NCBI GenBank assembly: GCA_016192825.1
Contig: JACPTK010000091.1
Location: 8,382 to 72,381 of the forward strand
Direction of reading: 5' to 3'
Length of the DNA: 64,000 bases
Source of the DNA: Betaproteobacteria bacterium
GTDB lineage: Bacteria > Pseudomonadota > Gammaproteobacteria > Burkholderiales > SG8-41
In this document: piece by piece, positions 417-58,053 of the stretch
Layout of the letters: each line of letters starts with the position of its first letter
Numbering within the stretch: position 1 is the first letter of the stretch
Program-made: the position numbers and the translations under genes
Notes under the pieces: model-generated
Databases searched by the model: none
Told to the model about the DNA's origin: nothing
What the model saw: the letters and a program-made list of their open reading frames with translations, nothing else

Positions 417-517
417 CAGGACTGGGAATCGAGGATTGAGGATCCAGGATTGAGGATTGAGCAAAAACCTCGGGGGCGGCGATTTCCCTCAATCCTGATA
501 GCACAATCCCCAGTCCT
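417..517. repeat. Inverted pair of heptamer tracts (GAGGATT-type 417-461 / AATCC-type 488-517)
   Basis: caggact gggaatc gaggatt gaggatc caggatt gaggatt; a degenerate reverse complement abuts the LOG stop. Confidence 0.8.
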
Positions 518-1244
518 ATAAATTGAGGAGTATTTCACGCTCCGCGTCCGACGGCTCGAAACCGCGCTTTTCGTAATAGCCGAAGATGGCGTCCACCACC
601 GCCTGCGGGTCGTCGTGGATCTGGACGAGATCGATGTCGCCGGCGTCGATCATGCCCTCCGCGACCAGCGTGCGGCGGAACCAGTCGAGCAGGCCGCGCC
701 AGTACGCCCCGTGCACCAGGATGATCGGCACCCTTCGCGTCTTGCCGGTCTGCACCAGCGTGAGCGCCTCCATCAGCTCGTCGAGCGTGCCGAAACCGCC
801 GGGCAGCACCACCCAGGCGGTCGCGAACTTCACGAACATCACCTTGCGCGCGAAGAAGTGGCGGAAGGTCTGGCTGATGTCCTGGTAGGCGTTCGACTGC
901 TGCTCGTGCGGCAGCTGGATGTTGAGCCCGACGCTCGGGCTGCGCCCGAAATAGGCGCCCTTGTTCGCCGCCTCCATGATGCCGGGGCCGCCGCCTGATA
1001 TCACGCTGAAACCGGCGTCGGAGAGAAGGCGGGCGGTCTTCTCGGCGAGGAGGTAGTAGGGATGATCGGGCCGCAGGCGGGAGCTGCCGAAGAAGCTCAC
1101 CGCCGGGCGGATCGCGCTCAGGCGTTCCGTGGCCTCGACGAATTCTGACATAATGCCGAACACCCGCCAGGACTCGCGCGCCGACCATCTTTTTTCCGCG
1201 AGCTCGGGCGAGATCGCGTTGGCAAGCTTGTTTCTTTCGGTCAT
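516..1244 (-). CDS. LOG-family (TIGR00730-like) nucleotide phosphoribohydrolase
   Basis: SGGGPGIMEAANKGA, FFARKVMF and PGGFGTLDE motifs. Confidence 0.9.
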   Translation of the reverse strand: MTERNKLANAISPELAEKRWSARESWRVFGIMSEFVEATERLSAIRPAVSFFGSSRLRPDHPYYLLAEKTARLLSDAGFSVISGGGPGIMEAANKGAYFGRSPSVGLNIQLPHEQQSNAYQDISQTFRHFFARKVMFVKFATAWVVLPGGFGTLDELMEALTLVQTGKTRRVPIILVHGAYWRGLLDWFRRTLVAEGMIDAGDIDLVQIHDDPQAVVDAIFGYYEKRGFEPSDAEREILLNL

Positions 1245-1253
1245 GGAAACTCC

Positions 1254-1320
1254 GTGAATCGTGAATCGATCTGACGCGGTTCGCGGAGTCGTCGAATCAC
1301 GAATCACGACTCACGAATCG
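1254..1320. repeat. Heptamer tracts GTGAATC x2 and GAATCAC/GACTCAC x4 in the divergent LOG/polA intergenic region
   Basis: Read directly at 1254-1267 and 1293-1320. Confidence 0.85.
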
Positions 1321-1321
1321 C

Positions 1322-4087: not shown

Positions 4088-4091
4088 AGGC

Positions 4092-4121
4092 CGTGATTCG
4101 TGAGTCGTGATTCGTGAATCG
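4092..4121. repeat. Heptamer tract CGTGATT/CGTGAGT x4 after the polA stop
   Basis: cgtgatt cgtgagt cgtgatt cgtgaat cg. Confidence 0.85.
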
Positions 4122-4227: not shown

Positions 4228-7200
4228 ATGAAGATCCTCGAATACGTCGGCCTCGACACCTCCCGCGTCAACGCCAGCTATCGCAAGGTGGCTGACGCCA
4301 TCGCCCGCCACGACTTCCGCGCCGCACAGGTCAAGAAACTCGCCAACCTCAGTCACGGCAAGTTCTACCGGGCAAAGCTCGGTGGCGCCGACCGGCTGCT
4401 GTTTTCCCTGGTCCGCCACGGGGACGAAGTCTGCGCTCTGATGCTGGAAGTGATCGCCAATCACGATTACGACAAGTCCCGCTTCCTGCGCGGCGCGGCG
4501 ATCGATGAAACCAGGATTTCCGACGTCGAAGCGGCCGACGCCGTCAAGGAGGCGCAGCCGGTGCGCTACCTGCACCCGGAGCGCACCGCGATTCACCTGC
4601 TCGACAAGCCGCTTTCCTTCGATGACACGCAGGAAGCTGTCTACCGCCAGCCACCGCCCCTGATCGTGGTGGGCAGCGCCGGCAGCGGCAAGACGGCGCT
4701 GACGCTGGAAAAGCTCAAGCACGTGGAAGGCGAAGTGCTCTACGTTACCCACTCCGCCTACCTCGCCCAGAGCGCACGGAATATCTACTATGCCAACGGC
4801 TTTGAACACGGCGGGCAGGAGGCAGTATTCCTGTCCTACCGCGAGTTCGTCGAATCCATCCGCGTACCGACGGGGCGGGAAGCAAGTTGGCGTGACTTTG
4901 CCGGCTGGTTTGCGCGGATGCGGCAGGCTTTCAAGGAGTTCGACGGTCACCAGGTCTTCGAGGAAATCCGCGGCGTGATTGCTGCTGGTGCCGGCGGTGT
5001 TCTGTCGCGAGATGACTATCGGACGCTCGGCGTGCGCCAGTCCATCTTTCCCGAAAGCGAGCGCGACCAGCTCTACGACCTCTTCGGGAAATATCGAGAC
5101 TGGCTTCTTGAGACCAGGCTCTACGATCTGAACCTAGTCGCCCGGGAGTGGCAGGCGCTGGCAGCGCCACGTTACGACTTTGTCGTCATCGACGAAGTCC
5201 AGGACATTACGACCGTTCAGCTTGCGCTGGTGCTGAAGACCCTCAAGCATCCAGGCCGCTTCCTGCTCTGCGGCGATTCCAACCAGATCGTTCACCCCAA
5301 CTTTTTTTCATGGGGACAGGTAAAGAGCTTGTTCTGGCGCGATCCGGCATTGGCCGAACGGCAGGAACTGCGGGTGCTCACCGCCAATTATCGCAATGGG
5401 CTGGAAGCAACGCGCGTCGCCAACCAACTGCTGAAAATCAAGCAGCGGCGCTTCGGTTCCATCGACCGGGAGAGTAACTTTCTCGTGCAGGCGGTCGGGG
5501 GTGAGAACGGGCAGGTGGCGCTCATGCCGGACAAGGACGCCGCGAAGCGCGAACTCGACCAGAAAATTCGCCAGTCCACCCAGTTCGCCGTCCTGGTAAT
5601 GCGCGACGAGGACAAGGCCGAGGCGAAAAAGCACTTCGCCACGCCTCTGCTGTTCTCCATCCATGAGGCCAAGGGGCTGGAATACGAGAACATCGTCCTC
5701 TACCGCCTTGTCTCGGATCACCGGGCTGAGTTCGCCGACATTGTCGAAGGCGTCGCCAAGGCTGATCTCGTTGTCGACACGCTGGATTACCGGCGAGCGA
5801 GGGACAAGAGCGACAAGTCGCTGGAGGTCTACAAGTTCTTCGTCAATGCTCTCTACGTCGCGCTGACGCGCGCCATCAGGAACCTGTACGTGATCGAATC
5901 GGACACCGGACATCCGCTCTTTGGCCTGCTCGACATGGCCATCGGCGAAGTCAAAGTGGAGGCGAAACAGTCGACGCTGGAAGACTGGCAGAGGGAAGCG
6001 CGCAAGCTCGAACTCCAAGGGAAACAGGAGCAGGCGGAAGCAATCCGGCGCACCATCCTCAAGCAGACGCCCGTGCCCTGGCCGGTGTTCGGCGAGGCGA
6101 AGGTCAATGAACTCCTGCTCAAAGTGTTTCGCGAACAGGCGCCAGGCAGCAAGATGAAGCAGCAGCTCTATGATTACGCCACCTGCTTTGACGAGCCGGT
6201 GCTGGCGAAGTGGCTCACTGAGGAGGCGAAGTTCGACGCGGCGAGAAACTTCCAGCAGCTACGCGCGACGCTGGCGCGCAAGACCTATGTCCCCTATTTT
6301 GCTCATCACTTCAAGGACATTTTGCGGCAGTGCGACCAACATGGCATCGAGCACCGTCTTCCCATGAACCAGACGCCGCTGATGGCGGCAGCGGCAGCAG
6401 GCAATGTGCCGTTGGTGGAGGCGCTGCTGGAGCGCGGTGCGGATCGGGAAGCTGTCGACCATTACGGCGGCAATGCCTTGCATTGGGCCCTGCGCGAAGC
6501 CTTTCGCGACCCGCAGTTCGCCCGCGGTCCTTTTGCCGCACTCTACGAATTGCTCGCCCCGGCGAGCATCGACGTCAATACCGGCGACCGGCTGGTACGC
6601 ATAGACCGCCACCTGTCCGAATACTTTCTGTTCCAGACACTGTGGACGCTGTTCAAGTCGCGCTTCACCCACAGGCAGCGCCGGTCCTACGGCGCTTTCG
6701 AGACGCGGGCAATTCTGGAAGCCTGGCGGCACCTTCCCGCCAACGTGGTGCGCCCCGAGCGCAACAAGCGCCAGCATCTTTCCAGCGTGCTCTCGCGCAA
6801 CGAGGTCGAGCGCGACTACGCCTACAATCGGGCGCTCTTCATGCGCGTCGCCCAAGGCTGGTATCAGTTCAATCCGAAACTCTCGGTGCGTCGCCGGCAG
6901 GGCGATGAGGAACTGTGGGCGCCGATCTATGCGGCGCTCAATTTGCCGCTGATCAACGAGTTTTCCATGGACGACGGATGGGAAAGCGTCCGGGACCGCA
7001 TCGCCGGGTACCTCGCCATGGCGGGACTGCCCGGGCGCACGATTCCGATCGCCGCCGAACGCGCCGTCGCGTGGCAGGAAGCGTTGGACCGCGAACGGGA
7101 GAAGCGTGAGCACGAAGAGCGCGCCGCCCTCGAACGCTGGCGGAACGAACGGGCCGCAACGCCGCAACATCAGCCGGCGGCCGAACCGAAATGGGGCACG

Positions 7201-7266
7201 AAAGAAGCCAAACGCATGGAAATCGAGCGGATACGCCGGAAAATCGAGGAGCGCAACGAGCGCTGA
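4228..7266 (+). CDS. SF1 (UvrD-like) helicase with a RelE-like N-terminal domain and an ankyrin repeat
   Basis: GSAGSGKT (Walker A), DEVQD, GDSNQ, NYR, IHEAKGLEY, LYVALTRA; ankyrin-like TPLMAAAAAGNVPLVEALLERGAD...GGNALHWA. Confidence 0.85.
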   Translation: MKILEYVGLDTSRVNASYRKVADAIARHDFRAAQVKKLANLSHGKFYRAKLGGADRLLFSLVRHGDEVCALMLEVIANHDYDKSRFLRGAAIDETRISDVEAADAVKEAQPVRYLHPERTAIHLLDKPLSFDDTQEAVYRQPPPLIVVGSAGSGKTALTLEKLKHVEGEVLYVTHSAYLAQSARNIYYANGFEHGGQEAVFLSYREFVESIRVPTGREASWRDFAGWFARMRQAFKEFDGHQVFEEIRGVIAAGAGGVLSRDDYRTLGVRQSIFPESERDQLYDLFGKYRDWLLETRLYDLNLVAREWQALAAPRYDFVVIDEVQDITTVQLALVLKTLKHPGRFLLCGDSNQIVHPNFFSWGQVKSLFWRDPALAERQELRVLTANYRNGLEATRVANQLLKIKQRRFGSIDRESNFLVQAVGGENGQVALMPDKDAAKRELDQKIRQSTQFAVLVMRDEDKAEAKKHFATPLLFSIHEAKGLEYENIVLYRLVSDHRAEFADIVEGVAKADLVVDTLDYRRARDKSDKSLEVYKFFVNALYVALTRAIRNLYVIESDTGHPLFGLLDMAIGEVKVEAKQSTLEDWQREARKLELQGKQEQAEAIRRTILKQTPVPWPVFGEAKVNELLLKVFREQAPGSKMKQQLYDYATCFDEPVLAKWLTEEAKFDAARNFQQLRATLARKTYVPYFAHHFKDILRQCDQHGIEHRLPMNQTPLMAAAAAGNVPLVEALLERGADREAVDHYGGNALHWALREAFRDPQFARGPFAALYELLAPASIDVNTGDRLVRIDRHLSEYFLFQTLWTLFKSRFTHRQRRSYGAFETRAILEAWRHLPANVVRPERNKRQHLSSVLSRNEVERDYAYNRALFMRVAQGWYQFNPKLSVRRRQGDEELWAPIYAALNLPLINEFSMDDGWESVRDRIAGYLAMAGLPGRTIPIAAERAVAWQEALDREREKREHEERAALERWRNERAATPQHQPAAEPKWGTKEAKRMEIERIRRKIEERNER

Positions 7267-14263: not shown

Positions 14264-14287
14264 CACGAGTCACGAGCCGCGAGTCAC
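14264..14287. repeat. Heptamer tract CACGAGT x3 just after the ybeD stop
   Basis: cacgagt cacgagc cgcgagt cac. Confidence 0.7.
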
Positions 14288-20942: not shown

Positions 20943-20947
20943 CTACA

Positions 20948-21055
20948 GTGCTGAGTGCATGGTGCTGAGTGCTGAGTAACAAACGCGCCCGCTGCGCGGG
21001 GTGGTTTGCGTTCCGAGCCCAGCACTCAGTCCTCAGTCCTCAGCACTCGGAACTC
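20948..21055. repeat. Inverted heptamer tracts GTGCTGA x4 / TCAGCAC-TCAGTCC x5
   Basis: 20948-20975 and 21019-21053; the right arm contains the moeB stop. Confidence 0.85.
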
Positions 21056-23493: not shown

Positions 23494-23512
23494 TGCGCGC
23501 TCCTGAAGAACC

Positions 23513-35582: not shown

Positions 35583-35585
35583 AGA

Positions 35586-35974: not shown

Positions 35975-35987
35975 CGGCGATGATTTT

Positions 35988-36021
35988 CCAACTCGAAACT
36001 CGAAACTCGAAACTGGAAACT
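35988..36021. repeat. Right heptamer arm CGAAACT-type x4-5
   Basis: ccaact cgaaact cgaaact cgaaact ggaaact; complementary to the left arm and immediately before the mshG RBS/start. Confidence 0.88.
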
Positions 36022-36027
36022 TGAGGC

Positions 36028-37257: not shown

Positions 37258-37260
37258 GAC

Positions 37261-37850
<590 letters not shown>

Positions 37851-39574: not shown

Positions 39575-40274
39575 CTTCGGTCACGAGTCACGAGTCACGA
39601 GTCACGAGTCCCCAATAGCGAGTCGCGCGACGCAGCTGTCCATTCGGGCATTAACGAACCATTTGCCTACGGACTTCGACCGGGGACCCGGGACCCGGGA
39701 CCCGGGAGTGCGACAGCTTGGTCTGTCGCTGGTCGAGCAGATCGTTTTCATTGTCGTGGTCGGTGTCGCGGTGGCGGGGGTCCTTGCTGTCGTGAACGTC
39801 GCCACGCACGGCAGCGCGGATCCCATGATCCAGAAGCAGGCGGTGGCGATCGCAGAGGCACTGATAGAAGAAGTTCAGTTGCAGCCATTTACGTACTGCG
39901 ATCCCGATGATGCCAATGCTGCGACGGCGTTGAGCGCAGCGGACTGTACCGGAGGCGTCGGCGGCGCGAATGACGAGAACAAGCTGCCGCTGGGATCCGA
40001 GGCCGGTGAGACCCGGACCAGCGCGGCAACCCCGTTCGACAACGTCAGCGACTACAACAACTTCGGCATGGGGCCGGGATTCACTGACATTAACGGCAAT
40101 GCGATCTCCGGGCTCGACGCCTACTCGGCTACGGTGAGCATCACGAATCAGGCGCTCGGGACGATTCCATCGAGCGACGCGCTCCTGATCACCGTGTCGG
40201 TGACGGGCCCGGCGAACACGAGCGTCACGCTTCACGGCTACCGTGTGCGCTATGCGCCGAATGCGCTGCCATAA
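39561..40274 (+). CDS. mshD: MSHA minor pilin with a repeat-expanded leader
   Basis: G|LSLVE, SADPM, FDNVSDY, LHGYR; leader holds GTCACGA x4 (39580-39610) and GGGACCC x3 (39683-39703). Confidence 0.85.
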   Translation: MSIHNFGHESRVTSHESPIASRATQLSIRALTNHLPTDFDRGPGTRDPGVRQLGLSLVEQIVFIVVVGVAVAGVLAVVNVATHGSADPMIQKQAVAIAEALIEEVQLQPFTYCDPDDANAATALSAADCTGGVGGANDENKLPLGSEAGETRTSAATPFDNVSDYNNFGMGPGFTDINGNAISGLDAYSATVSITNQALGTIPSSDALLITVSVTGPANTSVTLHGYRVRYAPNALP

Positions 40275-41151
40275 ACGGAATTCAGTAATGCGACGGGAAT
40301 CGAGTCACGAGTCACGAGTCACGAGTCACCGCGCTCCTCGAGCGCGCGGGGTGACGCTGGTCGAGATGATCGTGGTGATCGCGATCACCGGCATCGTCGC
40401 GGCGGCAATCGCCATATTCGTCCGTAGTCCCGTAGAGGGTTACGTGGACGCCGCGCGGCGCGCGGAGCTGACCGACATCGCCGACACGGCGCTGCGCCGC
40501 ATTACCCGCGACCTGCGTACCGCGCTGCCGAACAGCATCCGCACCACCACTTCCGGCAACGTTCGCTACATCGAGTATCTCCAGACCAAGGGCGGTGGAC
40601 GCTATCGCGCGGACAAGGATTCGGGCGGGGCAGGATTCCCTCTCGACGTCACGGCGGCGATCTCCGATTTCGACGTCATCGGCACGATGCCGGCGCTCGC
40701 GAGCGGCGATTCGATCGTCATATACAACCTCACCGCCGACTCCGCCGTGCCCACCGGCAATGCCTATGCCGGCGACAATCGCGAGGCGTACTCCAGCAAT
40801 ACCGCGACGACCATCACGCTCGGCGCGGCCAAGCAATTTCCGTTCGCTTCGCCGGGCAAGCGTTTCCAGGTCGTGCAGTATCCCGTGACGTATTCATGCG
40901 ATCCCCTTCCGCTGGGAACGGGACAGTTGCGCCGCTATTGGGGCTATTCAATTGCAGCCGTCCAGCCCACGCCGCCCGCCGGGGGCAGCAACGCGCTGCT
41001 CGCGACCAACGTGTCCGATTGCAGCTTCTCCTACGACCCGGCCACCGGCGCGTCCGGGCGAACGGGCGTGGTGGCGCTGATCCTGCAGATCGAGCAAAGC
41101 GGCGAGAAGGTGCGGCTTTTCCAGCAGGTGCACGTCAGCAATGTTCCCTGA
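40261..41151 (+). CDS. mshO: MSHA minor pilin
   Basis: RG|VTLVEM, RDLRTALPNSIR, GGRYR, QVHVSNVP; leader holds CGAGTCA x4 (40301-40328). Confidence 0.88.
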   Translation: MRCHKRNSVMRRESSHESRVTSHRAPRARGVTLVEMIVVIAITGIVAAAIAIFVRSPVEGYVDAARRAELTDIADTALRRITRDLRTALPNSIRTTTSGNVRYIEYLQTKGGGRYRADKDSGGAGFPLDVTAAISDFDVIGTMPALASGDSIVIYNLTADSAVPTGNAYAGDNREAYSSNTATTITLGAAKQFPFASPGKRFQVVQYPVTYSCDPLPLGTGQLRRYWGYSIAAVQPTPPAGGSNALLATNVSDCSFSYDPATGASGRTGVVALILQIEQSGEKVRLFQQVHVSNVP

Positions 41152-41707
41152 CACGAGCCACGAGCCACGAGCCACGAGCCACGAGCCGCCACGCGCGCGC
41201 CGGCGCGCGGCAGGCGGCTTCAGCATCGTCACCGCCATCTTCCTCATCGTGGTGCTGGCCGCGCTGGGCGCGTTCATCGTCTCGGTGAGCGGGCTTCAGC
41301 AGTCGAGCAGCCAGCTCGATGTCCAGGGCGTACGCGCCTACCAGGCGGCGCGGGCGGGAATCGAATGGGCGGCGTATCAAGTGCTCGATCCCAACAACAA
41401 CCAGCCCGGTATTGGGGGAACGGACAATCTTCCGGCGTGTCCAGCGCCGACGACCACTCTTCCCAGCCTGGCCGGTTCGCTGTCGGTATTCACCGTAACG
41501 GTAACCTGCAGCGACAACGTAGGCGCCGGCGTCACGGAAGGAAACCGCAAGATCGCGACCTACGAAGTCGTGTCCACCGCCTGCAACCAATCACCATGCC
41601 CCAATCCCTCGCCCGGGACGGGTTATGTGGAACGCCGGTTGACCGCCGTTTTGAGCAAGTGCAAGGATCCGACCGCGGCGGCCCCGCGGTTCGCGTGCGG
41701 AGGATGA
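41141..41707 (+). CDS. mshP: MSHA minor pilin
   Basis: GG|FSIVTAIFLIVVLAALG, RAYQAARAGIEW, YVER; leader holds CACGAGC x5 (41152-41186). Confidence 0.88.
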   Translation: MFPDTSHEPRATSHEPPRARRRAAGGFSIVTAIFLIVVLAALGAFIVSVSGLQQSSSQLDVQGVRAYQAARAGIEWAAYQVLDPNNNQPGIGGTDNLPACPAPTTTLPSLAGSLSVFTVTVTCSDNVGAGVTEGNRKIATYEVVSTACNQSPCPNPSPGTGYVERRLTAVLSKCKDPTAAAPRFACGG

Positions 41708-41714: not shown

Positions 41715-44700
41715 ATGCTCCGCAGTCGTGACCTCGCTGTTGTCGCAATCGCGATGGGGATGTTCGGTTACACCGCGAGCGCGCTTGCGCTGACCTGCCA
41801 ATCGAACGCCAACGGAAACTGGAACGCCGCAGGCACGTGGACGACCTGCGGAGGAGGCATTCCCGGCGCCGGGGACGATGTCCAGATACGCAACGCGAAC
41901 ACGGTCACCATCCCTGCGGGCTACGCTGCGGCGGCCAATTCGGTCACCTTCACGGTTTCGAACGGAACCGCGAACCTTACCCATGCCGCGGCAACCAGCA
42001 CGATCACCGTGGGGGCCGGCGGCGCCACGATCAATTCGCCCGGCAACAACAACAGCAAGAACTGGAACATCAACGCTGGCAGCGCCACCGTCAATGGCGC
42101 CCTCAGCATGAACGGGGGAGGCAACAACAGCCGATTTGCCAGCATTGTGATCACCACAGGTTCTCTGGATGTCAATGGCGGCGTGACGATGACTGCTGCC
42201 AATGCCGTGCGGACGGTAATTGACATGAGCGGCGGCGCCGGAAATCTTTTCATTGCCGGAAGTTTCAGCCTCGCCTCGGGAAACGGCACGCTCACTCCCG
42301 GAACCACCAGTACTGTCACCTACGATTCCGCGACAACACCGGTGACGGTCGCCACCGGCAGCAGCATCGCCTACAACCATCTCGTGATCGCCAAGGGCGC
42401 GGGCAACGTCGCAGACGCGGCGACGACGGGCACTCTGACCGTGGGGGGCAACCTGACGGTCACCTCCGGAACGTTCAACATCCCGGGCATCACGGCGACC
42501 ATTACCGGGACTACCAGCGTAACGGGTACTTTGGGATTCATCACGGCGGCTACCGGGACGAAGACCTTCAGCGGCGCCGTGACGGTGAACGCCGGCGGAA
42601 CCTGGAGCAATGCCGTGAACGCCAACGTGACCCTCGGTAACGGTCTCACTAACGATGGCACATTTGGCGCTGGCGACGGCGCCTACACCCTGACCGGCAG
42701 TCTGACCAATGGCGACACGTTCAATGCCGGCACCGGCAACTTCAGCCTGACCGGCAATTTCACCAACAACGGCACGTTCAATTCCTCGACCGGGACCTTC
42801 ACCTTCAACGGCGGCGCGGCGCAAAGCGTCAGTGGAAGCAGCGGCGCCACGGGCTTCGCCAACCTTGCGCTGAACAACGCCAACGGGCTGTCGCTGGCCG
42901 GCACGCACGATGTGACCGTGTCAACGCTGCTCACCCTGACTTCGGGGCGCATCACGACCAATGCCAACGTTATTGCCATCTCGAACGGCTCGAATGTCAC
43001 CGGCGCCGGGGCGAACAACTTCATCAACGGCAATCTGCGCAAGACAGTGGGCGCGGGCGGCTGCACGACCTGCAATTTCGAGATCGGTTCCGAAACCGGA
43101 GGGGTCCGCTATACGCCCGTGACCAGCGTCGCATTCACGGGGATCACGACCGGCGGCAGCGTGACCGCCGGCACGGTGGCGGCGGAGCATCCCAACATCT
43201 CGACTTCCGGCCTCGACGACACGCTCGACGTGAATCGCTACTGGACCCTGGCCAATTCGGGCGTCGTGTTCACGGATTACGGCGCGACGTTCAACTGGGT
43301 CGCGGCGGACCTCGACGCCGGCGCGGACACGACGATCTTTGAAATGACGCGCTTTGATCCGCCGGCCCCGGCGGCCGGCGCGTGGAGCAGCACCGTGACC
43401 GGGACCCGCACCGCGACCAGCATTCAAATCACCGGGGTCACCGGCTTCGGGGATTTCGCCGTCGGGCAGCCGCTGGCGGCGGCGGCCGGAATCGGGCGGT
43501 TCAACGCCTACGACACCACGACCGCGGCAGGCGCGGTCACCGGATTCATCACGACGAAGGTCGCCGGCGCCGCGTTCAACGTGGACATTATCGCCATCAG
43601 GAACAACCGCAAGGACATCGACACGGCCTTTACCGGAACGGTGCGGGTCGAGCTGCTCGACGCGAGCGACAACAGCGGGGCGGCCGACGCGGCCACCGGC
43701 TGCCGCGCGAGCTGGGCGGTGATCCAGACGATTGCGCCGGACCCGGCATTCGTCGGCGGCGACAACGGCCGCAAGACCATTGCCGTCACCGAGAACAACG
43801 CCTGGCGCGAAGCCCGGTTCCGAATCAGCGATTTCCCCGCCGGCAAGCTCGTCGGCTGCTCGACCGACGCCTTTGCGATTCGTCCCGATACCCTGGCCAG
43901 TTTCAGTGTGAGCGACACCGACTGGCAGACGGCCGGCACGATGCGTACTCTGAACGACCCGACATTCGGGACCACTACTCATAAGGCGGGCCGGCCGTTC
44001 AGCGTCCGCGCGACCGCCGTCAATGGCGCTGGCACACCGGCGACCACCACCAACTACGCCGGGGCGCCAACCGCCAGCGTCACCGCGTGCGCGGGCGCGG
44101 CATGCACGGCGACCTTCGGCACGCTTACGCTCGCCACCACCTTCGTGGCGGGCCAACTGGCGTCCGATATCGCTACCTACGGCGAAGTGGGCTCCTTCAA
44201 CCTGCAGCTGGTGGATTCCGCGTTTGCGATCATCGATGCCGCCGATGGCACGCCGGCGGACTGCACGGCGACGGGTCGCCACGTATGCAGCGGAACGATA
44301 GCCGTGGGGCGATTCGTTCCCGACCATTTTGCGGTTGCGCTCAACACGCCGCAGTTCGGCACCGCCTGTGGCGGCGGTTTCACCTATATCGGTCAGTCGT
44401 TCAGCTACACCACCGCCCCGCAGATTACCGTCGCGGCCCAGGATTTCAGCAACAACCCGACCACGCTTTATACCGGCGGCTGGTGGAGGATAACGAACAC
44501 GAGCGTGGCGCCGGCGACGCAAGCCGGGCGCTACTCCGCGGCCGCGGGAACGCTGGACGTGACCGGGCTGCCGGCGACTGCCGCCGATCCGGTGATCGTG
44601 GACGCGGGCAGCGGCTCGGGCACGCTCACGTTCGGCTCCGGCACGGGCCTCCTGTTCGGCCGCACGACGCCGGTTGCTCCATTCGATGCGGATATCAGCG

Positions 44701-45311
44701 TCGCGGTCAACGTGATTGACGCCGACGGAGTCGCTTACGCCAGCAACCCGGCCGGTTTCGGCGCGGCCACCGCGGGCAACGGCATCAGCTTCAGCGCCGG
44801 CAAGCCGATGCGCTTCGGCCGGCTCGTCATACGGAACGCAAACGGATCGCAACTCCTGCCGCTTCCCGTTCTGCTGGAAACCCAGTACTCGAACGGCACG
44901 GCGTTCGTTACCAATGCCAGCGACAATTGCACCGCGATCGCGGCGTCGGCGGCAGCGTCCAACGTTGCCATGAGCGGATTTACAGGCAACCTCACCGATA
45001 CCCCCACCTGTGAAACGGCCCTGAGCGGCGGGGGCACGTTCAGCTCAGGGCGCAAGACATTCCTGTTAGCGGCTCCCGGCAGCGGCAATAACGGCAGCGT
45101 CAATCTGACAGTCAATCTGGGCTCCGCCGCTGCGCTCGGGACGACCTGCCGCAGCACCGGTGATGCATCCGTGGCGGATTCCGGAGCCAACCTATTGTTT
45201 CTGAGAGGCAATTGGACCGGTGGTGCCTACGATCAGAACCCCGGGGCGCGAGCGACCTTCGGGGTTTATACCGGCGCGGAGGAAGTCATCTTTATCCGCG
45301 AAACCTTCTGA
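41715..45311 (+). CDS. mshQ: MshQ-like pilus adhesin (G/T/N-rich beta-helix-like N-half + DUF6701-like C-terminus)
   Basis: Signal peptide; GRFVPDHF, FTYIGQ, MRFGRL, NANGS, ARATFGVY...IFIRE. Confidence 0.82.
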   Translation: MLRSRDLAVVAIAMGMFGYTASALALTCQSNANGNWNAAGTWTTCGGGIPGAGDDVQIRNANTVTIPAGYAAAANSVTFTVSNGTANLTHAAATSTITVGAGGATINSPGNNNSKNWNINAGSATVNGALSMNGGGNNSRFASIVITTGSLDVNGGVTMTAANAVRTVIDMSGGAGNLFIAGSFSLASGNGTLTPGTTSTVTYDSATTPVTVATGSSIAYNHLVIAKGAGNVADAATTGTLTVGGNLTVTSGTFNIPGITATITGTTSVTGTLGFITAATGTKTFSGAVTVNAGGTWSNAVNANVTLGNGLTNDGTFGAGDGAYTLTGSLTNGDTFNAGTGNFSLTGNFTNNGTFNSSTGTFTFNGGAAQSVSGSSGATGFANLALNNANGLSLAGTHDVTVSTLLTLTSGRITTNANVIAISNGSNVTGAGANNFINGNLRKTVGAGGCTTCNFEIGSETGGVRYTPVTSVAFTGITTGGSVTAGTVAAEHPNISTSGLDDTLDVNRYWTLANSGVVFTDYGATFNWVAADLDAGADTTIFEMTRFDPPAPAAGAWSSTVTGTRTATSIQITGVTGFGDFAVGQPLAAAAGIGRFNAYDTTTAAGAVTGFITTKVAGAAFNVDIIAIRNNRKDIDTAFTGTVRVELLDASDNSGAADAATGCRASWAVIQTIAPDPAFVGGDNGRKTIAVTENNAWREARFRISDFPAGKLVGCSTDAFAIRPDTLASFSVSDTDWQTAGTMRTLNDPTFGTTTHKAGRPFSVRATAVNGAGTPATTTNYAGAPTASVTACAGAACTATFGTLTLATTFVAGQLASDIATYGEVGSFNLQLVDSAFAIIDAADGTPADCTATGRHVCSGTIAVGRFVPDHFAVALNTPQFGTACGGGFTYIGQSFSYTTAPQITVAAQDFSNNPTTLYTGGWWRITNTSVAPATQAGRYSAAAGTLDVTGLPATAADPVIVDAGSGSGTLTFGSGTGLLFGRTTPVAPFDADISVAVNVIDADGVAYASNPAGFGAATAGNGISFSAGKPMRFGRLVIRNANGSQLLPLPVLLETQYSNGTAFVTNASDNCTAIAASAAASNVAMSGFTGNLTDTPTCETALSGGGTFSSGRKTFLLAAPGSGNNGSVNLTVNLGSAAALGTTCRSTGDASVADSGANLLFLRGNWTGGAYDQNPGARATFGVYTGAEEVIFIRETF

Positions 45312-46757: not shown

Positions 46758-46870
46758 TCGCCCGGACCCGGGATACGGGATTCGAGATTCGGGTTGCGGG
46801 TCGTCCGTTATGCCGGCGCCGACGCGAAGATGTCTGTCCGACCGCCGGAGTTTCGGAGGCGCCGGCATGA
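46754..46870 (+). other. 38-codon spacer ORF carrying a CGGGATT-type heptamer tract, with ATGA overlaps at both ends
   Basis: MIARTRDTGFEIRVAGR...SEAPA*; junction sequence ggaggc-NN-cggcatga at 46742-46757 and 46855-46870. Confidence 0.6.
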
Positions 46871-48209: not shown

Positions 48210-48646
48210 GCCAGTCACGAGTCACGAGTCACGAGTCACGCGCCGCCGCACTGGCGCTCATGCTCTTTTGCGCGAGTGCCGCGGCGCAAGTGACGACCGA
48301 TCCCACCCGCCCGCCCGAGGGCATGGGCGCGACCGGCATGGAGGCGGCGGGAGACGCCGGTGGCGGCATGCTGCTGCAGTCCGTGATGATTTCGCCGACG
48401 CACAAGGCCGCGATCATCAACGGCGTGATGGTGCGGCTCGGGGACAAGTTCGGCGGCGCCGTGCTGGTCAAGGTGGCGGAGAGCGAGGTGGTGCTCAAGA
48501 GCGACGGCACGAGCCAGGTGCTCAAGCTGCATCCGGGCGTGGACAAGCGCGAGGTCGTCCCGGCTGCTGCAAAGAGCGCGCCCCGCCAGGGAAAAGCACG
48601 GAGCGGCAAGGACGCCGCGGCGGCCGGCGGCACGCCGGCGCGGTAG
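48206..48646 (+). CDS. mshK: MSHA biogenesis protein with a heptamer-encoded N-terminus
   Basis: DPTRPP, LQSVMIS, AIING; AGTCACG x4 at 48213-48240. Confidence 0.85.
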   Translation: MSQSRVTSHESRAAALALMLFCASAAAQVTTDPTRPPEGMGATGMEAAGDAGGGMLLQSVMISPTHKAAIINGVMVRLGDKFGGAVLVKVAESEVVLKSDGTSQVLKLHPGVDKREVVPAAAKSAPRQGKARSGKDAAAAGGTPAR

Positions 48647-48659: not shown

Positions 48660-50408
48660 ATGATGCCAAAGACGCTGGCGCTCGCATTGATGGTCGCTGC
48701 GGCGGGCGGCTGCGCGGAGCAGCCGGCGCGCCGCGACGCCACGTACGAGCGCATCTCCGCCGAGCTCGACAAGGCGACCAGGGAGCGCGCGCAGCCGGCC
48801 GCGCCCGACACGGTCAGCCAGGCGCTGCTGCCGCCGCTGGTGGTGGAAATGCCCAGGGCGGAAGGCAAGCCGCTCGACCAGCGCTTCGACTTGAACGTCA
48901 ACAACGCGCCGGCGGCCCAGGTGTTCATGGCGATCGTCTCCGGCACGCGCTTCAGCATGATCGTGCACCCCGAGGTGCGCGACGCCATTTCGGTGAACCT
49001 CAAGGACGTCACCGTGCTGGAGGCGCTGGATACCTTGCGCGATCTCTACGGCTACGAGTACCGCGTGCAGGGCAACCGCATCCTGGTGCAACCGGTCACC
49101 CTGCAAACCCGCGTGTTCCAGGTCAATTACCTGCACGCGCAGCGCGTCGGGCGCAGCGACCTGCGGGTGAGCTCCGGCTCCATCACCGACGCGCCGACCG
49201 CCGGCGGCGGGGCGCCGGGCGCGGCGGCCACGCCGGGCGCCGGGGCTCCCGCGCAGAGGCTCACCGAGAGCACCCGCGTCACCACCTCCTCCGACAGCAA
49301 TTTCTGGGGCGACATCGTGAAGTCGTTGAGCGCCATCGTGGGCACGGCCGACGGGCGCAGCGTGATCGTCAACCCCCAATCCGGCGTAATCGTGGTGCGC
49401 GCACTGCCGGCCGAATTGCGCTCGGTCGAGTCGTTTCTCAAGGCGATGCAGCTGATCGTCGAGCGGCAGGTGGTCCTCGAGGCGAAGATCATCGAGGTCA
49501 CGCTGCGCGACGGCTCCCAGGCCGGCGTCAACTGGGCGGCGTTCCGCGACGGCTCCACCCGCGCCGCGGCGGGCGTGATCACGCCGGGCGCGACGATCGG
49601 CAACACCGGCGCCCTCACCGCGCCCACGGCGCGGGCGGCCGACGGCACCGTCCTCGGAGGCTCCACGCTGTCGGCCACGCTCGGCACCGCCGCCTCGATC
49701 GCTGCCGGAACGGGCGTGCCCGGCGGCATATTCGGGCTCGCCCTGCAGACGCAGAATTTCGCCGCGCTGCTCGCGTTCCTGGAGACGCAGGGGATGGTGA
49801 ACGTCCTGTCCAGCCCGCGCGTCGCGACGATCAACAACCAGAAAGCGGTGCTCAAGGTCGGCACCGACGACTTCTTCGTCACCAACGTGTCGACCACCTC
49901 CACCACCAGCGGCACCAGCACGACGATCGCGCCGACCATCACCGTGCAGCCGTTCTTCTCGGGCATCGCGCTCGACGTCACGCCCCAGATCGACGAGAAC
50001 AGCAACATCATCCTGCACATCCATCCCCAGGTGAGCCAGGTGGTGGAGCGGCGCAAGGTGGTGGATCTCGGCACGCTGGGCACGTTCACGCTGCCGCTGG
50101 CGTCCAGCAGCATCAACGAGACCGACACCATCGTGCGCGTGCAGGACAGCAACATCGTGGCGATCGGCGGGCTGATGCGCCAGGAGTCGGCGACCGACGG
50201 CTCGCAGGTGCCCGGCATCGGCGAGCAGCCCGGCGTCGGCGCGTTGTTCCGGCAGCGCAGCTCGAGCAGCACGAAGAGCGAACTGGTGATCCTGCTCAAG
50301 CCCACCATCGTGCACAGCGACCGCGACTGGCAGCAGGACCTGGCCGACACCCGCGACCGCATCCGGGCGCTGGAACCCCCGCGGCGGCCCCAGCCATCCG
50401 CGCCATGA
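48660..50408 (+). CDS. mshL: MSHA secretin
   Basis: Lipobox, QVVLEAKIIEV, LSSPR, NNQKAVLKVGTD, PFFSGIALDVTPQI. Confidence 0.93.
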   Translation: MMPKTLALALMVAAAGGCAEQPARRDATYERISAELDKATRERAQPAAPDTVSQALLPPLVVEMPRAEGKPLDQRFDLNVNNAPAAQVFMAIVSGTRFSMIVHPEVRDAISVNLKDVTVLEALDTLRDLYGYEYRVQGNRILVQPVTLQTRVFQVNYLHAQRVGRSDLRVSSGSITDAPTAGGGAPGAAATPGAGAPAQRLTESTRVTTSSDSNFWGDIVKSLSAIVGTADGRSVIVNPQSGVIVVRALPAELRSVESFLKAMQLIVERQVVLEAKIIEVTLRDGSQAGVNWAAFRDGSTRAAAGVITPGATIGNTGALTAPTARAADGTVLGGSTLSATLGTAASIAAGTGVPGGIFGLALQTQNFAALLAFLETQGMVNVLSSPRVATINNQKAVLKVGTDDFFVTNVSTTSTTSGTSTTIAPTITVQPFFSGIALDVTPQIDENSNIILHIHPQVSQVVERRKVVDLGTLGTFTLPLASSSINETDTIVRVQDSNIVAIGGLMRQESATDGSQVPGIGEQPGVGALFRQRSSSSTKSELVILLKPTIVHSDRDWQQDLADTRDRIRALEPPRRPQPSAP

Positions 50409-52477: not shown

Positions 52478-52498
52478 CAGTCACGAGTCACCAGTCAC
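52478..52498. repeat. Heptamer tract SAGTCAC x3 after the comF stop
   Basis: cagtcac gagtcac cagtcac. Confidence 0.75.
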
Positions 52499-52501
52499 GC
52501 T

Positions 52502-53279: not shown

Positions 53280-54275
53280 ATGGAGACTTCTAGCCTTAAC
53301 GAACGGCCAACGGCCGCCGCTGACACCACGCCTGCGGCCGAGCCCTGGAGCGCGGACGCGGTCGAGGCGCTGTTCGCGCTGCCGTTCAACGATCTCATGC
53401 ACCGAGCGCATGGCGTGCACCGGCGCCATTTCGATCCCAACGCGGTGCAGTTGTCCACGCTGCTGTCGGTGAAGACCGGCGGCTGCCCGGAGGACTGCGG
53501 CTACTGCCCGCAGGCGGCGCGCTATCACACCGGCGTCGCGGACGAGGCGCTGCTGTCGGTCGAGCAGGTCACGGCCGCGGCGCGGCTCGCGAAGCAGAAC
53601 GGCGCGACCCGGTTTTGCATGGGGGCGGCGTGGCGCGGCCCGAAGCAGCGCGAGCTCGACCGGGTCATCGAGATGGTGAAGGCGGTGCGCGCCGAAGGGC
53701 TCGAGAGCTGCGCCACGCTCGGGCTGCTCAAGGCGGGGCAGGCCGAGCAGCTCAAGGCGGCCGGGCTCGATTACTACAACCACAACATCGACGCATCGCC
53801 CGAGTTCTACGGCGAGATCATCACCACGCGCACGCAGGACGACCGGCTGGAGACGCTCGAGCGGGTGCGTCGCGCCGGCATCCACGTCTGCTGCGGCGGC
53901 ATCGTCGGCATGGGCGAATCGCGCCGCGCGCGGGCGGCGCTTATCGCGCAGCTCGCCGGCATGGACCCGTATCCCGAGTCCGTCCCGATCAACAACCTGG
54001 TGCAGGTTCCCGGCACGCCGCTGCACGGGACCGCGGCGCTCGATTCCCTCGAATTCGTACGCACGGTCGCCTGCGCGCGCATCACGATGCCGAAAGCCAT
54101 GGTGCGGCTCTCCGCCGGCCGGGAGGCCATGTCCGAAGCGGTCCAGGCGCTGTGTTTCTTCGCCGGTGCCAACTCGATCTTCTACGGCGAGAAGCTGCTC
54201 ACCACCGGCAATCCCGACGTGGAAGCGGATCGAGCCCTGTTCGCTAAGCTTGGGCTCCATCCGCTTTGGTGCTGA
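53280..54275 (+). CDS. bioB: Biotin synthase
   Basis: [25 protein letters not shown]. Confidence 0.96.
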
Positions 54276-54445
54276 GTTTTGAGTGTTGAGTTTTGAATTG
54301 GTGCTGAATGGCTGATATCGCTGACATCGACGTTCATGAGGAGCTTGAAGATGCGGAGGAACTGATCCGGATTCTTACCGCAATCGTCAAGACTACTGGA
54401 CGTTCGAAGTGACAAACTCAACACTCAAAACTCAACACTCAAAAC
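54269..54445 (+). mobile_element. Heptamer-flanked remnant element: (GTKTTGA)n - 34-aa mini-ORF (54308-54412) - (TCAAMAC)n
   Basis: 54276-54296 is the exact reverse complement of 54425-54445; mini-ORF is MADIADIDVHEELEDAEELIRILTAIVKTTGRSK*. Confidence 0.75.
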
Positions 54446-55668: not shown

Positions 55669-55693
55669 CGCGGTACCCGGAAAACCAGGGACG

Positions 55694-56437
55694 ATGCAGA
55701 AAAACGACGTCAGAGACGTCGTTTTTCTGCACGGGTGGGGCAGCGGTGCCGGGATCTGGGACGATCTGGCGCGGCGGCTGGCGCCGCGATTCCGCGTTCG
55801 CGCCCTGCCGCTGCCCGGATACGGAGCGGACACGGCAAGCGGGACGCACTCGCTGCAGGCCATCGTTGCCGCGATCGCGCGCGCCGCGCCGCGCCGGTGC
55901 GGCGTCGTCGGCTGGTCGCTTGGCGGCGAAGTTGCGCTCGCCTGGGCGCGGCGCGCGGGACACCAGGTGCAGCGTCTGGCCCTCATCGCGACCACCCCGT
56001 GCTTTACGAGCAGGCCCGGTTGGCGATGCGCGACGGCGCCCGCGGTGCTGCGTGAAATCGGGCGCTCGCTCGCGGCCGACCGCGCCGGCACGCTGGCGCG
56101 TTTCGCCGCGGTGCAGGCAAGGGGCGATGCGCACGCGAGACAGGTTGCCCGCCTCCTGAAGCAGTCGAGCGAGCGCAGCGCGCCCGGCGAGGTGCTCAAG
56201 GCGGGCCTCGCTGTTCTGTCGAACACCGATCTGCGGCGGGAGTTGCCGAGGGTGCAACAGCCGGCAGTGGTATTGCACGGCGCGCGCGATTGCGTCGTGC
56301 CCCCCGCGGCGGGACGCCGGCTTGCCGCGGCACTGCCCAATGCGCGCTTTGCGCTGCTGCGGGACTGCGCGCACGCGCCGTTCCTGTCGCAGCCCGAACG
56401 GGTGGCGCGGACGTTGCGGGAATTCTTCGATGAGTGA
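55694..56437 (+). CDS. bioH: Pimeloyl-ACP methyl ester esterase
   Basis: LHGWG, GWSLGG, HAPF. Confidence 0.9.
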   Translation: MQKNDVRDVVFLHGWGSGAGIWDDLARRLAPRFRVRALPLPGYGADTASGTHSLQAIVAAIARAAPRRCGVVGWSLGGEVALAWARRAGHQVQRLALIATTPCFTSRPGWRCATAPAVLREIGRSLAADRAGTLARFAAVQARGDAHARQVARLLKQSSERSAPGEVLKAGLAVLSNTDLRRELPRVQQPAVVLHGARDCVVPPAAGRRLAAALPNARFALLRDCAHAPFLSQPERVARTLREFFDE

Positions 56438-57311
56438 CGCGCTCGCGCTGGACAAGCGGCAGGTGCGGCGATCGTTCGAGCGGGCGGCCGCGACCTATGA
56501 CGCGGCGGCGGTCCTGCAGAACGAGGTCTGCGCACGCATGCTGGCGCGCCTGGACTACATCAGGATCGAGCCGGCGACGGTCCTCGACGCCGGCAGCGGC
56601 ACCGGCAACGCGATTGCCGGCCTGCTCGCCCGCTACCCGCGCGCGCGCGTGATCGCGCTCGATCTCGCGCTGGGCATGGCGCGGCGCGCGCGCGCGCGGC
56701 GTCCGCGGTGGCGAAGCTGGCTCGACCGGGGCGGGCCGAGGCTCGCCGCCGTCTGCGGGGACATCGAACAGCTGCCGCTGGCGCCCGGTTGCGCCGGCCT
56801 CGCGTGGTCCAACCTGGCGATCCAGTGGATCAACGAGCCACAGCGGGCGTTTGCGGAGATGCACCGCGTGCTGGCTCCCGGCGGCCTGCTGCTGTTCAGC
56901 AGCTTCGGACCCGACACGCTGAAGGAGCTGCGGGCGGCGTTCCAGGGCGTGGATCGCCACAGCCACGTGCACCGATTCCTCGACATGCACGACGTGGGTG
57001 ACCGGCTGGTCGCCTGCGGCTTCGCCGATCCGGTGATGGACATGGAGACCGTGACGCTCACCTACGTCGACGTGCGCGGGCTGATGCGCGACCTGAAGGC
57101 GATCGGCGCGCGCAACCTGACGCGCGGGCGCCCCGCCGTCCTGGGCGGCAAATCGCTGCTCGCGACGGTGTCGCGCAACTACGAAGCGTTCCGCCGTGGC
57201 GGGAAACTCCCCGCCACCTTCGAGGTGGTCTACGGCCACGCCTGGAAGCCCGCGCCGCGAACCGGCCCGACGGGGCACCCGGTCATCGACATCAAGCCGC
57301 GCAGCCGGTGA
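56430..57311 (+). CDS. bioC: Malonyl-ACP O-methyltransferase
   Basis: FERAAATYD, LDAGSGTG, FGPDTLKEL, DMHDVGD. Confidence 0.92.
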   Translation: MSDALALDKRQVRRSFERAAATYDAAAVLQNEVCARMLARLDYIRIEPATVLDAGSGTGNAIAGLLARYPRARVIALDLALGMARRARARRPRWRSWLDRGGPRLAAVCGDIEQLPLAPGCAGLAWSNLAIQWINEPQRAFAEMHRVLAPGGLLLFSSFGPDTLKELRAAFQGVDRHSHVHRFLDMHDVGDRLVACGFADPVMDMETVTLTYVDVRGLMRDLKAIGARNLTRGRPAVLGGKSLLATVSRNYEAFRRGGKLPATFEVVYGHAWKPAPRTGPTGHPVIDIKPRSR

Positions 57312-57321
57312 GGGTGTTTTT

Positions 57322-58053
57322 GTGACCCGTCACGAGTCACGAGTCACGAGTCACGGGTATTTCGTGACCGGCACGGACACCGGCGTCGGCAAGACCCTCG
57401 TCGCCTGCGCCCTGCTGCGGGCGTTCGCGGCGCGCGGCCTGACGGCGGCCGGCATGAAGCCGGTCGCAAGCGGCGCCGAGCCCCGCGGGAACGAGCTCGT
57501 GAACGACGATGTCGAGCGCCTGATCGCGGCCGGCAACGTGGCCGCCCCGCGCGAGCACGTCAACCCCTACTGCTTCGCGCCGCCGATCGCGCCGCACATT
57601 GCCGCGCGGCAGGCGGGCGTGACGATCTCGCTCGATCGCATCGAGCAAAGTTTCCGCGCGCTGGCCGCCCGCTCGCAGGCGGTCGTCGTGGAGGGCGTGG
57701 GCGGATTTCGCGTGCCGCTCGGCGCGGATACCGACACCGCGCAGCTGGCCGCGCGGATCGCGCTGCCCGTGGTGATGGTGGTCGGCATGCGGCTTGGTTG
57801 CCTGAACCATGCCCTGTTGACTGCCGCGGCGATTGCCGACCGCGGCCTCACGCTTGCCGGCTGGGTCGCCAATCACATCGACCCGCAGATGGCCGCGGCG
57901 CGCGAAAACGTGCGGGCCCTCGAGGCGCTCGTCGGCGCGCCGCTGTTGGCCCGGATCGCGTTCGCCGAGAACCCGGAACCCGCGGCAATCGCGGCCGCGC
58001 TGGCAGCCGCAATCCACGGTGGCGCGCGCGCCGCAACTCGTTGCGAATGCTGA
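57322..58053 (+). CDS. bioD: Dethiobiotin synthase with a heptamer-encoded N-terminus
   Basis: FVTGTDTGVGKT, KPVASG, EGVGG, LGCLNHA; GTCACGA x4 at 57329-57356. Confidence 0.93.
   Translation: MTRHESRVTSHGYFVTGTDTGVGKTLVACALLRAFAARGLTAAGMKPVASGAEPRGNELVNDDVERLIAAGNVAAPREHVNPYCFAPPIAPHIAARQAGVTISLDRIEQSFRALAARSQAVVVEGVGGFRVPLGADTDTAQLAARIALPVVMVVGMRLGCLNHALLTAAAIADRGLTLAGWVANHIDPQMAAARENVRALEALVGAPLLARIAFAENPEPAAIAAALAAAIHGGARAATRCEC

Follow-up and report, generated by a model that had tools for sequence, protein, structure and literature searches.

In the 64,000-nucleotide (nt) stretch of DNA analysed here, referred to as the window (G000:C79:8382-72381), one kind of element recurs many times. 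It is an intergenic hairpin in which both arms consist of tandemly repeated 7-nt, sometimes 14-nt, units. A minority of these hairpins hold in the loop a gene of the TIGR02436/PF05635 family of four-helix-bundle proteins, and gene and arms together make up a discrete cassette. The cassettes lie between protein genes, mostly in co-directional strings of genes and in the orientation of the string; they are gained and lost as a unit, and their decay leaves remnants of the gene, empty hairpins or solo arms. The source genome, G000, is a 5.1-Mb draft of 123 contigs with ~65% G+C, whose proteins have their nearest named relatives in metagenome-assembled genomes (MAGs) of Burkholderiales and Betaproteobacteria. 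We know of no function assigned since 1993 to the open reading frame (ORF) of rRNA intervening sequences (IVSs), now the large TIGR02436/PF05635 family.

Filled and decayed cassettes in the window

The filled cassette occupies the junction between a pilB-like ATPase gene and a pilC-like gene. Its 5' arm (35548-35584, forward strand, AGTTTCG/AGTTGCG units) begins inside the TAG stop codon of the pilB-like gene, the four-helix-bundle gene follows on the same strand (35586-35974), and the 3' arm (35990-36021, forward strand, AACTCGA units) ends 6 nt before the pilC-like start. In the minimum-energy fold of 35540-36030, positions 35548-35579 pair with 35989-36021 around the whole ORF. An earlier note, made from the letters of the window, had claimed a near-complete four-helix-bundle gene between these arms. 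The gene is present, but it is broken by a 1-nt deletion at ~35725-35726, seen as a single-base gap on alignment with the intact orthologues of three relatives (G024, G022 and G020), and PF05635 matches it twice, once in each of two frames (36.4 and 78.3 bits).

The intact orthologue of G024 scores 130.3 bits against PF05635 (cut-off 33.8) and 123.4 bits against TIGR02436 (cut-off 24), the intact orthologues together spanning 123-132 bits on the latter model. In an alignment of 25 proteins (A1), whose consensus is RRAAVSVPSNIAEG, residues Q41, S48, A54, E55, G56, R59, S75 and E78 are at least 90% conserved, and the family motif is found, given as GxxRxxxSxxxNxxE in PMC3936711. The protein is under purifying selection, with a ratio of nonsynonymous to synonymous substitution rates (dN/dS) of 0.096-0.11 in the four orthologue pairs with measurable dS; dS was saturated in the other five. 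Of 81 clear cases, the gene points the same way as both neighbours in 62 and the same way as the upstream neighbour in 73. Eighteen family members have been placed inside cas operons (PMC3936711). In three relatives the domain (~residues 8-112) forms the N-terminal part of a frame of 305-331 aa (G019 L010:844-1836, G021 L011:812-1729, G008 L016:1480-2475). The remaining ~200 aa of these frames had no Pfam match, and the frames may extend across the 3' array into the gene that follows. The orthologous site of the window (41005-41321) holds a CACGAGC x5 array alone (41152-41187, 5.1 copies, directly after a TGA stop codon), at a junction that is filled in G019 and G008.

The second cassette of the window (54265-54445, forward strand) is decayed. 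A 5' arm of alternating GTTTTGA/GTGTTGA units (54265-54296) and a 3' arm of AAACTCA/ACACTCA units (54414-54445) enclose a 34-aa ORF (54308-54412). At the same junction, G006, G009, G012 and G042, and by coordinates G023, carry a 115-aa gene between GTTTTGA/GTGTTGA-type arms, of which G000 has kept the start, the last ~27 codons and both arms while losing ~300 nt in frame. Because the same arms enclose an intact gene at this site in relatives, the 34-aa ORF is a true deletion remnant, as the earlier note had supposed; the proof is orthology with a gene whose ends match, the profile match alone (1.9 bits) not being significant. At the orthologous junction G017 retains ~11 codons and one arm, and other species have hairpins of other families, solo arrays, or 35-36 nt with little repeat.

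Heptamer arrays and their link to the gene

Arrays were located with Tandem Repeats Finder (TRF), with window counts taken from a merged list, and genes were called from codon usage, the calls covering 82% of the genome. G000 contains ~1,150-1,235 period-7 arrays. Although genes cover most of the genome, 1,016 of the 1,156 TRF arrays with at least three copies (88%) lie mostly outside them. With period 7 there are 353 exact tracts of at least three copies, which fall into 80 heptamer families; period 6 gives 16 such tracts and period 8 gives 15. The heptamer logo rises modestly above shuffled units (3.73 vs ~3.05 bits). Of the 27 period-7 arrays in the window, two are within genes (49191-49244 and 62489-62507) and the other 25 are outside the gene calls, mostly at a distance of 0-20 nt from a start or stop codon. 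The window-wide heptamer system described in the earlier note is thus real and larger than reported. TRF finds every locus named there, these loci do sit at gene junctions, the two in-gene arrays having been absent from its list, and the preference for positions outside genes extends to the whole genome.

All seven PF05635 loci of G000 are bracketed by inverted arrays, each with a different heptamer, whereas arrays on both sides within 250 nt are found for 198 of 4,232 genes (4.7%). For comparison we used 40 related genomes, 24 of the genus and 16 from other families of the order, which contain the family in 20 and 2 cases, respectively. Loci fetched from these relatives numbered 30, and in 25 of them the gene is flanked by an inverted repeat that exceeds shuffled sequence, the arms having a period of 7 or 14. 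A pattern search over 185,579 species genomes supplied 80 loci from Acidobacteriota, Planctomycetota, Bacteroidota, Firmicutes, Nitrospirota, the candidate phyla radiation (CPR), Verrucomicrobiota, Xanthomonas and others. Of these, 78 could be tested, and 60 of them likewise have a flanking inverted repeat that exceeds shuffles; among 43 arms with clear periodicity 27 are of period 7 and 12 of period 14. In the combined set of 108 loci, from the genus and many phyla, a period-7 or period-14 array stands on at least one flank in 96 and on both flanks in 73, with 3.3 arrays per kb beside the gene and 0.46 per kb farther off in the same loci. In Xanthomonas vasicola, for instance, the gene separates accB from accC; GGGAATC units follow the accB stop codon, and their complement precedes the accC start. 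The association of arrays with four-helix-bundle genes that the earlier note put forward is therefore upheld, both here and across phyla.

As G000 is a draft of 123 contigs from groundwater metagenomes, assembly or binning errors might be suspected behind this architecture. We give this explanation practically no credence, since the same arrangement occurs in isolates (Xanthomonas vasicola, Adhaeretor mobilis and Deefgea salmonis) and in closed chromosomes, orthologous loci agree across 30 species, and 98-99% of the sampled words of a 9.5-kb stretch are present in four groundwater metagenome runs.

A general tie of PF05635/TIGR02436 to heptamer arrays was not found in the open literature, a search that leaves subscription papers and supplementary gene lists uncovered; the nearest published hint is the mention of heptamers in one IVS (PMC4990558). 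Heptamer arrays that are intergenic, lie near gene ends and form convergent inverted pairs are already in print (PMC4692102); within the scope of this search, what is new is the general link of the gene family to inverted heptamer arrays.

The arrays reach up to or into the first codons of some genes. In the window, an ACTGGAA array (37308-37360) abuts the likely GTG start of a prepilin-like protein (…GFTLLELA), and in G022 and G024 the 3' arm recurs once more behind the sixth codon of the pilC-like gene (L003 ~1900-1960 in G024). Elsewhere in the source genome, a GNAT-toxin/TacA-antitoxin pair is enclosed by inverted arrays of the same family (G000:C11:73917-74956, L223).

The earlier note had also listed five empty arm pairs in the window, four of which fold strongly (z -2.6 to -5.8). 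These are a hairpin with a GAGGATT-type 5' arm, a ~30-nt loop and a complementary 3' arm (417-517; RNA fold -40.8 kcal/mol, z -2.64); an AGTGCTG arm with its complement between convergent genes (20947-21055; -54.9 kcal/mol, z -3.93); CGTGAGT and ACCACTC arms around a 37-nt loop (23512-23603; z -5.57); and GAGTRCT and ACTCAGC arms around a 26-nt loop, again between convergent genes (33170-33268; -54.3 kcal/mol, z -5.84). The fifth (37260-37357, z -1.0) is a weak hairpin. Its arrays (37262-37355), GTTGCGA x2.6 and ACTGGAA/ACTCGAA x6.4, belong to the family of the filled cassette's arms and lie between the pilC-like and the prepilin-like gene, and 32 of 200 shuffles fold as well (z -1.01).

The other window arrays are single or adjacent. 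Two short ones, CGTGAAT and then CGAATCA/CGACTCA, occupy the divergent junction upstream of polA (1253-1319), and a solo CGTGATT/CGTGAGT array starts 4 nt past the polA stop codon (4092-4121). Further solo arrays are CACGAGT, 4 nt from the end of the neighbouring gene (14264-14287); GTGACTC, 14 nt upstream of the next gene (32152-32180); CGAGTCA x4.1 at a co-directional junction (40301-40329); CGGGATT x3.6 (46769-46793); AGTCACG x4, 3 nt past a stop codon (48213-48240); AGTCACG x3 between convergent genes (52479-52499); and GTCACGA x3.9, at distances of 17 nt from the preceding and 8 nt from the following gene (57329-57355). Arrays of GTCACGA x4.4 and GACCCGG x4.3 lie next to each other at 39580-39707. 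Two large proteins encoded in the window may be recorded here. A 1,185-aa protein of the MSHA-type pilus cluster (41754-45311) has no NCBIfam match and contains an internal 57-nt tandem repeat (42689-42801). A 1,012-aa protein encoded after polA (4228-7266) gives weak RecB/UvrD-type helicase and MzaA sigma-factor matches (E 1e-5 to 1e-8) and may be a defence-type helicase-nuclease.

Pairing, handedness and stop triplets of the arms

Successive arrays less than 100 nt apart form same-family inverted pairs in 118 cases against 14.2 expected and direct pairs in 7 against 14.4, the gap between the arms being mostly 20-50 nt. Same-family direct arrays show no local clustering, and direct pairs are not enriched at any distance. 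The hairpins are handed: the 5' arm is G-rich and C-poor in 103 of the 118, C-rich in 3 and flat in 12. As a hairpin reads identically on both strands, this handedness is an intrinsic property and does not reflect orientation relative to genes. Gene-bearing loci behave like the empty hairpins; among 70 with period-7 arrays on both flanks, 48 are G-first, 6 C-first and 16 flat. The earlier note had stated that the repeat period is conserved while the sequence is not. This is correct insofar as orthologous arms differ and are still complementary, but the G-rich, C-poor 5' arm and an enrichment in TGA are kept as well.

The loops are not conserved, 113 of them giving just 11 weak loop-to-loop matches, and the window has no match in Rfam at gathering score. 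One empty-hairpin loop (G000:C113:23861-23905) resembles a classical intrinsic terminator, with a GC hairpin followed by a T run, which suggests that arrays can grow around native intergenic signals.

Read cyclically, the unit of the 5' arm contains a stop triplet in 82 of 118 hairpins, where letter-permuted units predict 54.9, and TGA is enriched threefold (76 vs 25.0). Units of the 3' arm are depleted of stops (12 vs 22.1 expected). All three frames are closed by 68 of the 118 5' arms, and all three are open in 92 of the 118 3' arms. Among the 525 arrays beginning no more than 30 nt past a stop codon, 61% have a stop triplet, where the letters of these arrays would lead one to expect 40% and random heptamers with the composition of the genome 17%, and upstream arms of the cross-phylum set have one in 35 of 56 cases (25.1 expected). 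The counts suggest that a stop triplet is the only conserved feature of the heptamer unit besides the G/C bias of the arms. Since 7 exceeds a multiple of 3 by 1, a triplet that recurs in every unit falls in each of the three frames within three units. Together, the handedness and the TGA core give a concrete hypothesis for the period of 7, which is that this number cannot be divided by 3.

If translation insulation were the primary role, arrays would serve to stop translation in all three frames behind a gene, their stop-free complement would precede the next gene, and the hairpin would be a by-product of both lying in one junction. The enrichment of TGA, the stop triplets of post-stop arrays and the depletion of the 3' arms all agree with this idea, as does its requirement for a period not divisible by 3. 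It appears quite unlikely to us all the same. Insulation alone needs no complementarity, yet same-family arms are complementary far above chance and remain so through full sequence turnover; periods of 4, 5 or 8 would serve equally well and are not enriched; 23 of the 118 5' arms close no frame; and large families elsewhere (GGGAATC and GGGGATT) have no stop triplet.

Turnover, known systems and interpretation

At the pilB-pilC junction, the cassette is present in G000, G047, G020, G022 and G024, with AGTTTCG, AGTTTGA or GCGGGTC arms that are complementary within each genome. In G010, G041, G012 and G048 the junction is bare (2-17 nt). G004 and G044, which nest in the G022/G024 branch of the pilB tree, have kept ~44 nt including a decayed 3' arm, and on this tree the filled state needs five changes for five filled genomes. 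Compared by eye, bare and filled junctions show no target duplication. Filled/empty polymorphism among relatives, predicted in the earlier note, is therefore seen both here and at the 54265-54445 junction, and the gradient that it proposed exists as a decay series: filled site, in-frame remnant and shorter remnant at one junction, and a solo-arm scar at another. Junction-targeting as an active process finds no such backing, as no target duplication was seen.

Since the unfilled pilB-pilC junction is bare in four species, arms and gene appear there together, which speaks against a view in which the hairpins are independent and the gene is a lodger. On that view, arrays would arise by slippage and quasi-palindrome correction, hairpins would act as mRNA stabilisers or operon punctuation like repetitive extragenic palindromic (REP) sequences, the genes would do no more than enter the loops or persist in them, and empty hairpins would be targets, not scars. 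It gains from other sites. Where relatives are filled, G000 is filled too at five sites and unfilled at six, of which four hold an empty hairpin whose heptamer family is the same or a related one, one has the solo array at 41152-41187 and one is bare (syntenic site L025, on contig C37 of G000, is longer in G000 and stands outside this tally). When the empty sites of G000 are aligned with the genes of relatives, only the arms align and the loops do not match the gene ends, so these sites cannot tell a scar from a target. A remnant profile built from the 25 proteins and run on six-frame translations of 228 inter-array spacers recovered the known loci and one extra, a weak match (G000:C91:2588-2819; E 4e-7 in a restricted search) between arrays in direct, not inverted, orientation. 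Empty hairpins had been taken for scars in the earlier note; clear remnants do exist, which counts against the lodger view, but for most hairpins this interpretation is not supported, with one extra remnant in 228 spacers, unconserved loops and arrays flanking ordinary genes. The unique loops, some holding an apparent native terminator, the symmetric spectrum of stem mismatches described below, and the attribution of heptamer over-representation to polymerase slippage (PMC4692102, citing Mrazek 2007) also fit independent hairpins.

Array density bears on the same question. Sampled genomes of the genus have 6.3, 2.5, 2.8 and 21.5 arrays per 100 kb when they contain no four-helix-bundle gene, 11.7, 11.5 and 2.1 when they contain one, and 24, 23, 4.1, 20 and 31.8 when they contain five to eight; G000, with seven genes, has 22.6 over the whole genome. 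The value of 21.5 is that of G011 (unpublished, 75% complete), which contributes this one point and enters the genus correlation; G156 (unpublished) enters the class tally alone. Gene number and density correlate within the genus with a Spearman rho of 0.58 (p 0.037, kin genomes that are non-independent) and among 14 genomes from other families of the class with a rho of 0.38 (p 0.18, underpowered). Arrays in genus genomes without a detected gene (2.5-6.3 per 100 kb in G001, G003 and G005, and 21.5 in G011) are in line with independent hairpins. In contrast, the gene brings its own arms where arrays are rare, the class sample having 0-6.7 arrays per 100 kb and the cross-phylum loci 3.1 per kb beside the gene. 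Moreover, no insertion machinery is known for the gene. Taking both sides together, we regard the lodger view as rather unlikely. The arms accompany the gene, the 12 of 108 loci with no array excepted, and the genome-wide spread of gene-less hairpins is a lineage trait.

The correlation within the genus could also mean that the protein acts on the arrays in trans, as an Avd-like pentamer that would bind heptamer RNA or DNA, regulate its own synthesis, and either hold the hairpins as a regulon or promote their formation and spread. The family is related to the nucleic-acid-binding protein Avd of diversity-generating retroelements (DGRs), the PDB entries of the relatives 2GSC (Xanthomonas XCC0516) and 2RLD contain five chains each, purifying selection acts on the protein, and the heptamers flanking the seven genes match 648 of 1,220 genome arrays with at most one mismatch. 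However, this match is not cognate, because the arrays of other genomes are matched about as well (10/23, 10/24 and 7/24). There are ~80 heptamer families and seven genes, the correlation in the class is not significant, and one class genome with five genes has 0 arrays in 60 kb. Action in trans therefore seems improbable. The protein itself is not Avd, since the intact orthologues score below both model cut-offs (PF22296, 28 vs 40 bits; NF033474, 22-29 vs 80 bits) and the window's contig has no RVT_1 match.

Transposase and reverse transcriptase partners were sought with two families, Y1 transposase and RVT_1. The genome has eight Y1_Tnp hits, one with a single short array within 400 nt, and four RVT_1 hits, all on contigs other than that of the window; the statement in the earlier note that the window has neither enzyme thus holds for these two families on the whole contig. 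Neither was found as a partner flanked by arrays, with the exception of one reverse transcriptase gene beside two long arrays. This locus, with an 80-nt AGTTGCC and a 193-nt GCTGGTG array just downstream of the RVT_1 hit (G000:C78:27905-28209), is the only hit of either family with long arrays nearby.

Among known systems, REP elements and their mosaic arrangements (BIMEs) are likewise abundant extragenic hairpins at gene ends, often at co-directional junctions, but they have a conserved sequence and flank their own Y1 transposase, the REP-associated tyrosine transposase (RAYT). REP elements with RAYT were ruled out by the 80 families, the lack of a conserved palindrome and essentially 0 of 8 Y1_Tnp hits being array-flanked. 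Nor is the element a miniature inverted-repeat transposable element (MITE), as the 113 loops have no conserved core and the bare and filled pilB-pilC junctions show no target-site duplication by eye. Compared with Avd of DGRs, the protein shares a related four-helix-bundle sequence and five-chain PDB relatives and differs in scoring under the Avd cut-offs.

Closer precedents are the GGGAATC repeats of Xanthomonas and the GGGGATT repeats of Nostoc (Rehm et al. 2015, PMC4692102), which the earlier note had missed. These are tandem 7-mers of ~3-6 units, 89-93% intergenic, with the G-rich strand in sense just after stop codons and in antisense just before ORFs; convergent inverted pairs number 70 in Xcc and 75 in Xac, and the Xanthomonas repeats are mostly transcribed and vary in length among close relatives (PMC4692102). 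The arrays described here share all the defining traits, being tandem 7-mers, ~90% intergenic, near gene ends and in convergent pairs, and the handedness of their hairpins agrees with the strand pattern of the Xanthomonas repeats. In its available part, PMC4692102 treats one G-rich family as quadruplex-forming and draws no link to four-helix-bundle genes, whereas we find ~80 families, most of which are not prone to form quadruplexes. The TAACTGA repeats of Beggiatoaceae and cyanobacteria (PMC4679880) and the four-heptamer elements of Geobacter (PMC2700814) are also intergenic tandem heptamers beside start codons, proposed to act post-transcriptionally or as regulatory elements, and TAACTGA holds stop triplets. 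As far as the available texts go, they are nearly all direct and single-family (169 direct sets, 1 inverted) with no such gene-family link, unlike the inverted pairs found here.

The rRNA IVSs of Leptospira and Coxiella resemble the cassette most specifically in that a PF05635 ORF lies in the loop of a long stem of complementary ends. In Coxiella, the 23S IVS has a 28-bp terminal stem that is cleaved by RNase III in vitro, with ends mapped in the stem, and the S23p ORF in its loop is preceded by two to three tandem GACAGAT units that vary between strains (PMC4990558). An IVS interrupts an rRNA helix, whereas the cassette sits at a junction of a protein-gene operon, the window copy between pilB-like and pilC-like genes. 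Furthermore, both arms of the cassette are heptamer arrays, and hundreds of gene-less hairpins of the same build exist alongside it. The stem of an IVS is thus found here, and the insertion into a 23S or 16S rRNA helix is not.

Based on this shared build and on the fold that pairs the arms around the ORF, we read the cassette as the protein-operon counterpart of the ORF-bearing 23S rRNA IVSs, with a stem processed as RNA, and we put the probability of this reading, whose mechanism is inferred, at about one in two. By analogy with the rRNA version, the stem is probably cut as RNA. The cassette would be transcribed by read-through from the host operon. Its arms would then pair, draw the flanking cistrons together and form a long double-stranded stem, which RNase III would cut to release a small mRNA, such cutting having been shown experimentally for the rRNA version only. 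One stop triplet per unit would close three frames within three units, so that ribosomes coming off the upstream gene would be released before they reach the stem. At the DNA level, arrays would change in length by slippage, arm complementarity would be kept by arm-to-arm copying or by selection for pairing, and cassettes may move between hairpins of the same family by recombination through the arms. On this reading, some of the empty hairpins would be cassette scars.

Several observations weigh against this interpretation. Stem mismatches on the sense strand are of the G·U type in 117 cases and of the A·C type in 156. Without a G·U excess there is no wobble signature of selection on the sense RNA, a DNA-level process fits equally well, and the concerted change of both arms may stem from arm-to-arm copying of DNA. 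The S23p protein of Coxiella is, as the authors of that study concluded, probably not made in vivo (PMC4990558), and the window copy of the gene is frameshifted at ~35725, within the conserved core. Arrays number ~1,200 and four-helix-bundle genes seven, arrays also bracket ordinary genes (pterin dehydratase, cupin, aldolase), and 12 of the 108 loci have no period-7 or period-14 array on either flank. Array density tracks gene number weakly in the genus and not significantly in the class, where the five-gene genome is free of arrays in its 60 kb. As for the stop triplets, downstream arms of the cross-phylum set are slightly enriched in them too (22 of 62 vs 15.4 expected), not every 5' arm closes a frame (23 of the 118 close none), and the GGGAATC unit of Xanthomonas has no stop. 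The interpretation in the earlier note as a whole is supported in part: the gene link, the polymorphism and the decay series stand, and the explanation of most empty hairpins as scars and the active targeting of junctions are not supported.

More speculatively, and in our view with low probability, the cassette would be a mobile element free of transposase that moves from one heptamer hairpin to another by recombination through its arms, an Avd-like pentameric protein would bind, make or maintain the arrays, and the rRNA IVS would be one landing site among others. A heptamer excess across prokaryotes has been reported 'with no clear clue' to its function (bioRxiv 10.1101/309039). If the mobile-element reading were true, PF05635 genes would be the missing partner behind this intergenic excess.

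The link between gene and arrays joins two long-unexplained features of bacterial genomes, the intergenic heptamer repeats and the ORF family of rRNA inserts. Cassettes sit inside operons such as accB-accC, pilB-pilC and cas loci, where annotation can wrongly count them as part of the operon. If the gene and its inverted arrays form one unit across phyla, both puzzles would become open to ordinary experimental tools.

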